This document shows, piece by piece, positions 8,836 through 25,880 of a stretch of 64,000 nucleotides of DNA (the first letter of the stretch is position 1; each line of letters starts with the position of its first letter). The notes under the pieces are model-generated. The model searched no databases. It had not been told where the DNA came from and saw nothing but the letters and a program-made list of their open reading frames with translations. Where the stretch lies: positions 246,625-310,624 of the forward strand of contig JAJYXM010000016.1 in the NCBI GenBank assembly GCA_021796435.1. The letters run 5' to 3'. A program made the position numbers and the translations under genes. The stretch is from a bacterium (lineage in GTDB: Bacteria > Patescibacteriota > Patescibacteriia > 2-12-FULL-60-25).

Positions 8836-9669
8836 ATGCAGAACAGAACGTTCCTTTGCCTTCTGGGTTCGATTGCAGTTTTGTCGCCGGTTTGGCAGGG
8901 GTGCTCTTCGGACGCGAAGACCGAAGTGTCCGTCAACGCATCTCCGGATGCGTCCGATGATGCGACTGAGGAAGCGACTGCCGATGCGGCCCAGGATGCG
9001 TCCGTTGAAGCTGATGGTATGTCGCCACCTGATGCAACTGATGATGGGTCAGCCGACGCATCGGATGCGGTCAGCGATGTTGCTCCGGATGTGGCAGCCG
9101 AAGTCGGCGAGGATGCCCTTCCTGATGTGGTCCAGGACACGTCTGTCGAAGCCGACGAAGACGCACCTGATGATGCAGCGGTCGACGCATCTGACGAAGT
9201 CGGTGAAGACGCAGCGCCTGATGCCGCCTTCTACTGCCCGAGCTGCGAGGAGTTGCTGACGTGGGATACGACGCAAAACAACAACTCCACCTACGGTGAG
9301 ATCAGCACGCTCAGCGTGTGGCCTGACGCGTATGCCTGGCAAATGATCGATGAGTGTCCGGGCTGGGGCATCTACCAAGGCCACCAGGGCGGAATCGGCG
9401 ACACGCTGGAGATCTCGTCGTGCAACGACGGCCTTGTGCTGGTGTGGGCTTACGGATACTTCTCCCACATCTCCGTTTCGGAGGGATGGACGGGGAAGAC
9501 CGACACTGACCTGGCTATCGGAACGAGCTACGATGTTTTCATCGCAACCTACCCTGGGTACGACAGCAATTCGACGCTGATCAACGCAGGCGGCTACGCC
9601 TCCTTGCACTACGCAGGCGGATTCGCGATTTTCCAAGATAGCTTGCTCAACAAGCTGCATGTGTACTGA
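8836..9669 (+). CDS. Lipoprotein with Asp/Ala-rich acidic low-complexity linker and Cys-containing C-terminal domain (paralog family A)
   Basis: RBS GAAGGAGG then ATG at 8836; signal peptide plus lipobox (WQGCSS); about 100 aa of DA/EA repeats; paralogous to ORFs at 24288 and 25023. Confidence 0.6.
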   Translation: MQNRTFLCLLGSIAVLSPVWQGCSSDAKTEVSVNASPDASDDATEEATADAAQDASVEADGMSPPDATDDGSADASDAVSDVAPDVAAEVGEDALPDVVQDTSVEADEDAPDDAAVDASDEVGEDAAPDAAFYCPSCEELLTWDTTQNNNSTYGEISTLSVWPDAYAWQMIDECPGWGIYQGHQGGIGDTLEISSCNDGLVLVWAYGYFSHISVSEGWTGKTDTDLAIGTSYDVFIATYPGYDSNSTLINAGGYASLHYAGGFAIFQDSLLNKLHVY

Positions 9670-9793
9670 CCTTGTTCTGCCTCCACTGGGCGCCGTGAGA
9701 ACCACGGCGCTTCTCCTTTTGCCGCGAAAAAAATTTTGAATATAGTTTCACTAAAGAATTCAAAAAACACTGCGTTTACTGTATCATCCACGC

Positions 9794-10549
9794 ATGCCTG
9801 ATTATCGGAGTCTCATAAAATCAATCGGTCTTAACGAAAGCGAAGTCGCCGTATATATGGCGGCTTTGGAGACCGGACCAGCTCAAGCCCAATTGTTGGT
9901 GAAAAAATCCGGTTTTTCCCGGCCAGCGACCTATCTCGCCATCGACCAGCTGGTACAGAAAGGCCTGATGACCTCGATAGTCAAAGGAAAGAGGAATTTG
10001 TACGCCGCGGAACCGCCGGAAAGACTGGTGGATTTCGGAAGGTCGCAAGTCAATGTGCTGTCCAGCAAAGTGGGGGAGATAGAGGCGGTCATCGAAGACC
10101 TGCGTCTGATGAGGAAGGGTGAGAGACCGACGGTAAAATTCTATGAAGGCATCGAAGGGCTGAAGGCGATAATGCATGATTTGGTCGAAAGCCATCCCGA
10201 GATGACCTATGAGATAGCTAATCTTGATGCGGTCAAAAACGTCTTTTCTGCACAAGAGCTGGAATCGGCGCAAAAGATAATCGCGAAATTCAAAGCTAAA
10301 GGGCAGGCGCTTTTGGCCGGAAAGGTTTCGAGGGTTCGAGAAGGCGTAGAGGCGAGGTTGTTGCCGGCAGAATTAGGCGAATTTTTCGGTGATGTGATCA
10401 TCTACGGCGATAAAGTCGCCATGGTCTCTTTCAAGGGGAAAGTTTCAGGGGTCATCGCGGAAAATAAGGTCTTAGCCGATACATACCGCATTTTGTTCGG
10501 GTTGGCTTGGAAAGGTGCAGAGGATCTGCCGGAATTCGGGAAAAATTAG
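9794..10549 (+). CDS. TrmB-family HTH transcriptional regulator
   Basis: N-terminal winged HTH (LNESEVAVYMAALETGPAQAQLLVKKSGFSRPATYLAIDQLVQKGLM) typical of TrmB. Confidence 0.65.
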   Translation: MPDYRSLIKSIGLNESEVAVYMAALETGPAQAQLLVKKSGFSRPATYLAIDQLVQKGLMTSIVKGKRNLYAAEPPERLVDFGRSQVNVLSSKVGEIEAVIEDLRLMRKGERPTVKFYEGIEGLKAIMHDLVESHPEMTYEIANLDAVKNVFSAQELESAQKIIAKFKAKGQALLAGKVSRVREGVEARLLPAELGEFFGDVIIYGDKVAMVSFKGKVSGVIAENKVLADTYRILFGLAWKGAEDLPEFGKN

Positions 10550-11009
10550 CGTTTAAGCTTTTAAGATTCATGGTTCAGCAAAGGCGTTTTTTTGAGCTTC
10601 TTGTGTCATCAGATACGACAAACCCCACCGCCTGAAAGGCTAAGTGGGGTATTGCCTCAGCTTCCGCTTCCCATTTGGACCTCCTTCCTGCGTGGACATG
10701 CGACCTTGGACAAGGTTTTGGTCGTCGCACTTTGTCCGATCTTTGACGGACGTCGCAGGAAGTTCCTTGCTTATGGGGGATAGCTGGGCGTGTAGATGGG
10801 ATAAGTAAGGGCGAGTAGCCTGGGTGGTCGAAAAACGACTTGTGCCAGATTACGCAAAATAATATAGCGTAATTTTATTTTTTTGTCAATGGTTAGACTG
10901 ACAGAATTTATCTTTTCTTATAGCGTATTAACGTAGAAAAATATTATACATAAATATTCAATAAAATATGCAAATTTAGTATCAAATATATAATTATGTA
11001 ATGTAGCTC

Positions 11010-11038
11010 TTGACAAATATTTCGACTTGTGATAGATT
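11010..11038 (+). promoter_or_regulatory. Near-consensus sigma70 promoter (TTGACA-17-TAGATT) preceded by an AT-rich UP-like tract
   Basis: TTGACA at 11010-11015, 17-nt spacer, TAGATT at 11033-11038; 180 nt of more than 80% AT upstream. Confidence 0.6.
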
Positions 11039-11044
11039 ACGATT

Positions 11045-23812: not shown

Positions 23813-23870
23813 CAGTAAGTCGTGAAGCTGGGTTAATATACCCACGGTTCTTTTTCGTGCGGAGGTCCGG

Positions 23871-24110
23871 ATGACGCAGCTGACGATCGTGGTCTATTTC
23901 AAGAACGGCGTTTACACTGCAGCGAACATCTTGGGCGTACGTCCCAATATGAGGTTCGAGGGCGAGGTGTTCGCGATGAGCATCGAGCTGGGTGGTGGCT
24001 TGGCCACAACCCTCAACCGGCGCGAGCTGGAACGACGCGTAAGGCAAGAGGCACGACGTCGCCGTATCTCTTTCGTCAAAGGGCTGGACGAGCCGAATCC
24101 GGCCGGATGA
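23871..24110 (+). CDS. Small hypothetical protein
   Basis: 79-aa ORF; weak support. Confidence 0.3.
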   Translation: MTQLTIVVYFKNGVYTAANILGVRPNMRFEGEVFAMSIELGGGLATTLNRRELERRVRQEARRRRISFVKGLDEPNPAG

Positions 24111-24287
24111 AAGGGCAAAATGGTGAAAACATGGAGAATATCTTCTTTAAGAGAGCTGTAATAGGCTCTCTTAGTTTTTTATCTAAATTTAGGTCAGGGG
24201 TTGACATTTTGTGTAATTTATGGTGTTATGTCTCGTTATCCAAGGTGGGTAACGTCTGTTCGTTTCTCAAGCAAGAGAGAGGTTGCC

Positions 24288-24959
24288 ATGCGCAAGCCGA
24301 TTCTTTTCGTGACGATGCTTTCGATTCTGGCCGCAGCGTGCGGCGATGCCTCCAACGGCGAGCCGGTCAATCAGGCTCCAAGCGAGGATGCTGGCGCCGA
24401 GGCGGCGACTGACGCAGCGCCCCAGAAGGATGCGGCAGTCGAAGCCAAGGCCGACGCAGCGTCCGACAAGGATGCCGGAGTCGAGGCTGCTGCCGACGAT
24501 GCGGCGGAAGACGCAGCGCCGACGGGGTTCTGCGACGACGTCGAGGAAGGCCATGTGGCCATCCTCTTCGTGGCGCCGCAGCCGCGTGGCGACGGCTTCC
24601 TGGCAGCTGCGGCCTGGGTGAACTACCCGCCGTACGCCGCAAGGCCGGACGTCAGCTGGACTAACCCGTTTCCGGGTTGCGTCGCCGACTACGCGACCGA
24701 TCAGGAAGTCCTGTGCGACTTCGGACCGGCCTTCCAAGGAATGTCGATCAGCACCATTTTTGGCCTCAACGACGGGTCGCCCACGAGCGCGATCACCAGC
24801 TACTTCAGCTGGAACGGTACGGACGGCGACCACGTGGTCGGCGAGGCCTACGCCTGCGACGGTCACATGGTCGTCGGGACCATGAAGGACGGGACGTACG
24901 ATGGACTGCTCAAGTCCGATCCGAACGCTCCGCTCAACATGCTGCTCACGGTCCAGTAG
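24288..24959 (+). CDS. Lipoprotein with Asp/Ala-rich acidic linker (paralog family A)
   Basis: RBS GAGAGAGG; signal peptide plus lipobox (LAAACG); DAAPQKDAAVEAKADAASDKDAGVEAAADDAAEDAAP repeats; C-terminal domain ending LLTVQ. Confidence 0.6.
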   Translation: MRKPILFVTMLSILAAACGDASNGEPVNQAPSEDAGAEAATDAAPQKDAAVEAKADAASDKDAGVEAAADDAAEDAAPTGFCDDVEEGHVAILFVAPQPRGDGFLAAAAWVNYPPYAARPDVSWTNPFPGCVADYATDQEVLCDFGPAFQGMSISTIFGLNDGSPTSAITSYFSWNGTDGDHVVGEAYACDGHMVVGTMKDGTYDGLLKSDPNAPLNMLLTVQ

Positions 24960-25022
24960 GGCCATCAACTCGCCCCCGTGCCGTGGTAACATGGCCGGGG
25001 GCGCTCAAGTACCTGGGAGGTT

Positions 25023-25880
25023 ATGATGAGAATGTGGTTTTTGGTTCTCGCCGGCTTGATGCTGGCGCTGGTCGGTTGCGGTGGTGCAGAGTTCTCGGTA
25101 GCGGGATCGCCGGAAGACACGGCTCCTGGAGACGCGGCAGTGCCGGACGGAAAGGAAGCTGCTGTCGAGGTTGGCGACGAGAAGCTGCCTGAAGCCTCTC
25201 CTGAAGCTGACGCTGCCGATGCGCCAATCGATGTCGCGGAAGACGTGGCACAGGACGTCGTGACAGAGGCTGATGCAGCCGCGGAAGACGTAGTATCTGA
25301 AGCGGAAGCCTCTCCCGAAGCTGACGCTACTGATGCTCCAATCGATGTCGCAGAAGACGTGGCACAGGACGTGCACGAAGCCGGAGATGCGGCGACGGAT
25401 GCTCCGGTCGATACGGGCCTCCTGCCGCCTTGCGGAATCGTGCCGCAGCAAGGCTGGTGGATCTGCTACAAGCTGGATCACCAGTCTCAGCCGCTCGCGT
25501 TCGTGGGTTTGTCCGGAGGTATCGTGCCTTCCGGCCAGAGCATCGAGAACTATTGGAGCTCGCCGTTGATCGGCGCCGCGAACACCAAGTGCATCGCGCC
25601 CTCCAATCTTCTCGACTACGTGCTGTGCCCGCTCGGGAACCTGGAGAACGTCGGTTACGTCCAGTTCACGGCAGGGCTGCATCCCAACACGACTGATGGT
25701 TTCATCGCCGGTACCTTGAGCTGCGGTCTTGAGCCTGACAGCTGTTCGGGCGAAGCATACGTCTACCACGACGGAAGCCAAGCGGGCAGCATGCAGAACG
25801 GGCAGACCAACGGAGTACTGGGTACGATCCAGCACTTCACACCTCCGGGCAGATACGACCTCTATTTCTCGGTCCAGTAG
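25023..25880 (+). CDS. Lipoprotein with Asp/Ala-rich acidic linker (paralog family A)
   Basis: RBS GGGAGG; signal plus lipobox (LVGCGG); EASPEADA(A/T)DAPIDVAEDVAQDV tandem repeats; C-terminal domain ending YFSVQ. Confidence 0.6.
   Translation: MMRMWFLVLAGLMLALVGCGGAEFSVAGSPEDTAPGDAAVPDGKEAAVEVGDEKLPEASPEADAADAPIDVAEDVAQDVVTEADAAAEDVVSEAEASPEADATDAPIDVAEDVAQDVHEAGDAATDAPVDTGLLPPCGIVPQQGWWICYKLDHQSQPLAFVGLSGGIVPSGQSIENYWSSPLIGAANTKCIAPSNLLDYVLCPLGNLENVGYVQFTAGLHPNTTDGFIAGTLSCGLEPDSCSGEAYVYHDGSQAGSMQNGQTNGVLGTIQHFTPPGRYDLYFSVQ

Follow-up and report, generated by a model that had tools for sequence, protein, structure and literature searches.

Three predicted lipoprotein genes, here called A, B and C, were analysed in a stretch of 64,000 nucleotides (nt) of contig JAJYXM010000016.1, the whole of which is referred to as the window. 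Comparison of the encoded proteins revealed a common architecture without a common domain. Each protein consists of a predicted signal peptide with lipobox, an acidic low-complexity linker and a Cys-containing globular domain at the C-terminus. The domains of B and C identify these two as distant, ancient tandem paralogues, and the domain of A is unrelated to them. It is probable that all three are lipid-anchored envelope proteins which carry their C-terminal domains, or heads, on fast-evolving disordered spacers.

Gene A (8836-9669, +) encodes a predicted lipoprotein of 277 amino acids (aa) from a family with a CPSC(D/E)ELLTWDTT motif. Gene B (24288-24959, +) encodes one of 223 aa, and gene C (25023-25880, +) one of 285 aa, or 284 aa from the ATG at 25026 that is used in public gene calls. 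A ribosome-binding site, GAAGGAGG, was located 7 nt 5' of the ATG of gene A, and GGAGG could be found 2 or 5 nt ahead of the two candidate ATGs of gene C. The exact A protein is present on public contigs and the exact B protein (P0002) on a public contig. An earlier note, made from the letters of this DNA, had described the three genes; its open reading frames (ORFs), the peptides quoted in it and the LTVQ and FSVQ ends of B and C were all confirmed, as was the architecture it proposed for the three proteins. Antisense ORFs over the linkers (e.g. 25005-25910, minus strand) were ascribed to GAN/GCN codon bias and dismissed; the plus strand is supported by conservation, by the fold model and by the ribosome-binding sites.

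Lipoprotein signals were assessed by the logic of PROSITE PS51257, i.e., a basic n-region, a hydrophobic h-region and a lipobox Cys within residues 15-35. The N-termini of A, B and C carry K or R among the first 7 residues, followed by a hydrophobic stretch and the lipobox Cys. The predicted signal peptides with their lipoboxes, MQNRTFLCLLGSIAVLSPVWQG ahead of Cys23 in A (8836-8904, +), MRKPILFVTMLSILAAA ahead of Cys18 in B (24288-24341, +) and MMRMWFLVLAGLMLALVG ahead of Cys19 in C (25023-25079, +), fit the PS51257-type regular expression with VWQGC, LAAAC and ALVGC, respectively, and most full-length homologues match as well. The linkers start right after the lipobox Cys and are built of D, E, A, V, P and S. 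They comprise 110 aa with a net charge of -34 in A (8905-9234, +), 63 aa with -13 in B (24342-24530, +) and 117 aa with -32 in C (25080-25430, +); D+E account for 26-32% and A for 25-35% of the residues, and K/R for only 1-3 residues. The C-terminal domains that follow, of 144 aa in A (9235-9666, +), 142 aa in B (24531-24956, +) and 149 aa in C (25431-25877, +), are of ordinary composition with at least four Cys each.

A six-frame scan of all window ORFs of at least 100 aa, in which the acidic signature was defined as a 40-aa window with at least 30% D/E plus small residues, revealed this signature in A, B and C only. The window holds four credible lipobox ORFs, three of which are A, B and C. 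The fourth candidate lipoprotein (40326-41240, -), with MQPKYFVVFFIISLASFSAG ahead of the Cys, has a short non-acidic linker, a Cys-rich region and no Pfam match. Neither lgt nor lspA was seen among the ORFs scanned in the 64-kb window, which is a fraction of the genome.

The relationship of the C-terminal domains was evaluated by pairwise and profile comparison. By BLASTP with low-complexity masking, the B and C domains aligned with 27% identity over 90 aa (pairwise E 5e-4), and nothing aligned between A and B or C outside the linker. An alignment of nine B/C sequences was colinear from end to end at 21-22% identity, with three Cys, a W, a P, a G, a GE motif and the terminal V invariant. Comparison of B and C with hhalign gave a probability of 82% with small profiles and of 98.9% (E 2.8e-17, 142/146 columns) with B-type (20 sequences) and C-type (13 sequences) profiles, the latter value carrying the caveat that some of these sequences were recruited via the joint profile. 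In some family members, e.g. P0054, the B-type PFPGCVA motif is mixed with the C-type N-terminal motif. The comparisons of A with B and of A with C gave hhalign probabilities of 0.1-0.2%, and the predicted fold classes differ, being alpha+beta for the A domain and all-beta for the B/C domain; A therefore belongs to another family. Thus, of the three paralogues named in the earlier note, the B-C pair stood and A had to be set apart.

The A and C linkers were more similar than residue shuffles (z = 5.2). Homology was rejected as the cause, since nucleotide sharing stops at 11-14-nt strings and the linkers are unalignable even among orthologues, and the similarity was put down to a shared short-period D-A/V-x-x pattern.

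Searches of Pfam and NCBIfam gave no above-threshold match for A, B, C or ten diverse homologues, and profile searches of PDB sequences gave nothing significant for the A or B/C domains. A word-seeded search retrieved seven relatives for A, seven for B and one for C, and the seven A homologues shared 53-64% domain identity. An exhaustive B/C profile search among 1.84 billion representatives yielded 48 clusters at 50% identity, and in most full-length matches the domain is C-terminal and preceded by a lipobox and a low-complexity region. In most full-length members of both unrelated families, a Cys occurs in [AGS]-C context at residues 11-27; some A-family homologues, of AWGC and VWGC types, fail the stricter lipobox pattern. 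All homologues with an organism name were assigned to 'Patescibacteria group bacterium' or Candidatus Uhrbacteria (Parcubacteria group). An Uhrbacteria-related Patescibacteria bacterium with a reduced genome is supported as the likely host, in agreement with the reduced-genome host suggested earlier. No description of either head family or of acidic-linker lipoproteins in Patescibacteria could be found in the literature, and the two small head-domain families, as far as sequence comparison goes, are uncharacterised, lineage-restricted and mutually unrelated. In eight members of the B/C family (P0025, P0026, P0043, P0045, P0052-P0054 and P0058), Cys-rich repeats (C..C...C / DCDGD...GCE type) stand between signal peptide and domain. 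These repeats, which have no Pfam match, replace or supplement the low-complexity linker.

In the AlphaFold2 model of A, residues 7-128 showed no secondary structure and a predicted local distance difference test score (pLDDT) below 50, and a folded domain follows. A confident all-beta model was obtained for the C-terminal domain of B. The disordered tether was assigned to A from the model, and to B and C from the low-complexity composition of the linker together with a confident folded domain. The predicted fold of the A domain weakly resembles BLIP, BamE, OsmE and YfeY; the nearest named systems are small alpha/beta lipoprotein or inhibitor domains, namely BLIP-like, BamE/OsmE (SmpA_OmlA), YfeY, DUF4309 YjgB and the type VI secretion system immunity proteins TsiN/BtiO. 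For the B/C head, the nearest named systems are beta-sandwich modules of Ig-like, FN3 and CBM56 type.

Four Cys are invariant in the A domain (CPSC...C...C set), of which the CPxC pair opens a short helix. The domain also has a conserved polar W(S/G)I..GHxGGxGDTLE motif, the surroundings of which were poorly modelled, and the Cys set together with GHxGGxGDTLE could be a candidate redox, metal or ligand site. In the B/C head, Cys, Gly, Pro and Trp make up nearly all invariant positions, which suggests a binding or structural module and not an enzyme. Taken over all three proteins, the heads likewise look like binding or structural modules.

Comparison across relatives revealed that heads and linkers evolve very differently. 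The A-family domain is exactly 144 aa long and gap-free at about 63% identity, whereas the A-family linker ranges over 37-110 aa and is essentially unalignable (25-35% identity). The B and C families showed the same pattern of a conserved domain against an unalignable linker. Beyond close relatives, linker identity is 21-35%, with no conserved acidic motif and no fixed spacing, and the region between Cys and domain in the B/C family extends from 23 to about 370 aa. Linkers of both families may be acidic and D/E/A-rich or uncharged and G/S/T-rich, some with Cys-rich repeats, and K+R amount to 0-7% throughout. In the Candidatus Uhrbacteria locus L006 (OY970357, 3680-5328), the C orthologue has an uncharged G/S/A-rich linker of GSAGQAGSGG type, a clear case, as read from the sequences, of linker replacement between orthologues; the B orthologue there has near-perfect ADAKADAT(A/E)DAKTDAE repeats. 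A 141-aa linker was found in L005, and the C orthologue P0001 has a 101-aa linker in which a 12-aa gap deletes the first ADAPIDVAEDVAQ copy. Since some orthologues have uncharged G/S/T-rich linkers, acidity is not the conserved trait. The traits that appear to be conserved are disorder, low complexity and the lack of basic residues. The linker indels observed were confined to comparisons of relatives whose nucleotide identity is about 92% or lower, and slippage or indels would act on evolutionary time, because linker length shifts between species-level relatives.

Repeats within the linkers were located using Tandem Repeats Finder and a repeat finder. All the repeats keep the reading frame, with periods of 12 and 48 nt for A, 42 nt for B and 114 nt for C. 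Most units are degenerate, with 61-76% identity, and the Tandem Repeats Finder arrays had 68-72% matches; the B linker repeat (24385-24498, +), for instance, has a 42-nt period present 2.7 times at 72%. The sole high-identity repeat is a 68-nt direct repeat in the C linker, the first copy of which, EASPEADAADAPIDVAEDVAQDV (25191-25258, +), is 93% identical to the second, EASPEADATDAPIDVAEDVAQDV (25305-25372, +). The copies lie 114 nt, or 38 codons, apart in frame, and both encode EASPEADA(A/T)DAPIDVAEDVAQDV. The longest exact string common to the A, B and C genes is 11-14 nt. Recombination between the genes is unlikely since they have no common nucleotide string longer than 14 nt.

Two Logan assemblies, built from different sequencing runs, match the B-C region at 100% over 2101 nt, and a third Logan contig contains an identical A region. 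The concern raised in the earlier note that the repeats might be assembly artefacts was met by this identity in separate assemblies, so they are not artefacts of one assembly. No variation in repeat copy number was visible at assembly level in the Logan data. In a 92%-identical relative (L010), the contig ends within the C 68-nt repeat (L010 3912-3941), the final 30 nt being 100% identical to part of the second repeat copy (25305-25334); the short-read assembly probably broke at the repeat.

Genes B and C are separated by 63 nt with no terminator-like site found between them, and a hairpin with a T-rich tail, read by eye, lies downstream of C. These features suggest that the two genes are probably co-transcribed on a single transcript. 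The region upstream of B contains a terminator-like hairpin (24147-24174) and TTGACA (24201-24206). A search for related loci by B-only alignment found two species-representative genomes. The B-C pair lies directly 5' of rpsB-tsf in the window, in L005 (JAVHLR01) and in L006, where the B orthologues share 67% (L005) and 41% (L006) identity with B. The gene prfA lies upstream of the pair in the window and in L006, and B and C also stand in tandem in L001. Judging from this synteny, the B-C pair appears to be a set of stable core genes of the lineage and not a variable cassette. The neighbours of the three genes in the window are prfA, rpsB, tsf, tRNA-Leu and a TrmB-family gene; the neighbourhood of A is not conserved. 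Between prfA and B lies a 79-aa ORF (23871-24110, +) without a Pfam match; gene calls in separate assemblies include it, and L010 retains it.

On the reading preferred here, A, B and C would be exported by the Sec pathway via a type II signal peptide and presumably lipidated at the lipobox Cys, which would anchor each protein on the outer face of the cell membrane. An extracytoplasmic, envelope-exposed location is a reasonable inference. The disordered, nearly base-free stalk would act as a spacer holding the disulfide-containing head off the membrane, towards or through the cell wall, where the head may bind a partner. Going by polymer behaviour, a polyanionic chain free of K/R would stay extended and be repelled from the anionic membrane. 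The stalk lengthens or shortens as in-frame indels arise or GAY/GCN-rich units are duplicated locally, with the head conserved: a predicted beta-sandwich derived from the ancient tandem duplication in B and C, and a predicted alpha+beta head in A.

Selection might act on the charge itself, the linkers being functional polyanions that serve as Ca2+/Mg2+ reservoirs, as a substitute for teichoic-acid-like polymers or as electrostatic shields. The net charges of -13 to -34 with almost no K/R agree with this, the nearest relatives of A, B and C all keep acidic linkers, and a P-type cation ATPase and a Na/Ca exchanger elsewhere in the window offer a weak context. However, neutral G/S/T/A-rich linkers occur in the L006 C orthologue and in P0014, P0022, P0027, P0031, P0033 and P0051, and neither a conserved acidic motif nor a fixed spacing is present. 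A polyanion function is thus possible for this lineage, weakened by the neutral-linker orthologues, and on balance it was judged unlikely; cation binding, which the earlier note had suggested, loses ground as a conserved role for the same reason. It is also very doubtful that the three proteins are soluble secreted or wall-associated proteins with an incidental Cys, the acidic region being a cleaved pro-peptide or intramolecular chaperone. The lipoboxes are non-canonical, and the AWGC/VWGC-type A homologues that fall outside the stricter pattern would fit such proteins, but recurrence of [AGS]-C in two unrelated families is hard to explain as incidental, and pro-peptides are usually conserved in sequence, which these linkers are not.

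Recombination or phase variation through the nucleotide repeats had also been proposed. The proteins would then be size- or phase-variable surface antigens like the mycoplasma Vlp/Vsa/Vsp/Vpma proteins, in which repeat slippage or recombination alters linker length or expression. The in-frame periods of 12, 42, 48 and 114 nt, the 93% 68-nt pair that could delete or duplicate 38 codons, the linker indels of orthologues, including the loss of one copy of the 68-nt unit in P0001, and the break of the short-read contig L010 within the repeat would all suit such a system. Nevertheless, most units are only 61-76% identical, short of a near-identical tandem array, the sequence is 100% identical across Logan assemblies from different runs, and nucleotide identity between the genes is confined to the 11-14-nt strings. 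The upstream regions read showed no homopolymer or dinucleotide tract and the scan no promoter-like site, invertible elements not having been searched for. There is neither an adjacent recombinase nor a multigene array, and the genes are single-copy, syntenic and placed beside housekeeping genes. Variation of this type was considered very unlikely, and the earlier proposal was not upheld. The lipid-anchored heads on disordered spacers described above are the reading carried forward.

It is well established that bacterial lipoproteins can carry disordered linkers at the N-terminus; in E. coli, the deleted lipoprotein linkers were about 30 residues long and served Lol-dependent sorting to the outer membrane (bioRxiv 10.1101/2021.01.05.425367). 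A, B and C resemble E. coli RcsF, Pal and NlpD (bioRxiv 10.1101/2021.01.05.425367; Pal linker length study PMC12826056) in the order of lipobox Cys, disordered tether and folded domain, where tether length places the domain in the envelope. Unlike the E. coli tethers, the A, B and C linkers are strongly acidic and measure 63-117 aa, with lengths of up to about 370 aa among relatives. Patescibacteria are not known to possess an outer membrane or Lol. With the mycoplasma Vpma, Vsp and Vlp/Vsa proteins (PMC5634654, PMC3120828), they share a reduced-genome host and a repetitive low-complexity region after the lipobox. In contrast to those proteins, A, B and C have no near-identical arrays, multigene locus, recombinase or promoter tract, do not vary between assemblies, and have a conserved globular C-terminal domain and conserved synteny.

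Several other features were observed in the window. The region 11000-12535 (+) comprises about 1.5 kb without a credible ORF, has a promoter-like TTGACA at 11012 and gave no Rfam match even at E<=1. Its predicted folding is unusually stable: z-scores in 300-nt windows on the plus strand were -3 to -6 compared to about 0 in the flanking genes, with a minimum free energy of -692 kcal/mol on the plus strand against -636 kcal/mol on the minus strand. It contains a repeated module consisting of CTGGAGCG, a stem, GTTACTC and a further stem, followed by CGCATCCTCTC, a hairpin and ACGGAAGAGG. Exact copies lie at 11979-12022 and 12487-12528 and a looser one near 11461-11550; the last copy reaches the ribosome-binding site and ATG of the ORF at 12537-12869, and the stems vary between copies in a compensatory-looking way. 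The region is a candidate for a large structured RNA or a cis-regulatory one. When metagenomic data were scanned with the 11979-12528 motif, at least 120 loci were returned, none of which was homologous by nhmmer or an extended-motif check; they were taken as chance matches and gave no evidence of covariation.

A higher-GC stretch (13672-16400, GC 0.589) lies beside a tRNA-Val (13672-13748, -). It includes three small paralogous ORFs (14129-14494, 15460-15822 and 15931-16275), which have SEDG..Y and EFW..AEA motifs in common. A direct repeat of 101 nt with 92% identity (14515-14615 and 15359-15459) is also present. At about 13.7 kb, a Logan contig from the same organism breaks off. The stretch is possibly a small integrated or variable element. 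At 30692-33289 (+), an 865-aa ORF matched Pfam PF11978 MVP_shoulder, the major vault protein shoulder domain, over residues 499-601 (E 3e-11) and had no PDB sequence match at E<=0.001; it may represent a vault- or SPFH-like protein in a Patescibacterium.

The overall design of A, B and C is ordinary, a known lipoprotein layout on two unannotated Patescibacteria-restricted domains, and no new mechanism is revealed. A bolder proposal, which we regard as distinctly improbable, is that the heads are Patescibacteria-specific host- or wall-recognition modules presented beyond the wall on polyanionic, protease-resistant stalks that replace teichoic-acid-like polymers, the B-C pair forming a two-component surface receptor. 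If this were true, the heads would belong to the interface through which an episymbiotic ultrasmall bacterium attaches. Most Patescibacteria are uncultured, and most of their envelope proteins lack annotation; two small extracytoplasmic domain families can now be defined for them, one of which, the B/C family, has a confident beta-sandwich model without a close solved relative. Evolution has freely changed the linkers in length and composition and left the heads fixed, a pattern that is useful for annotation and makes these proteins candidates for surface display or host contact.

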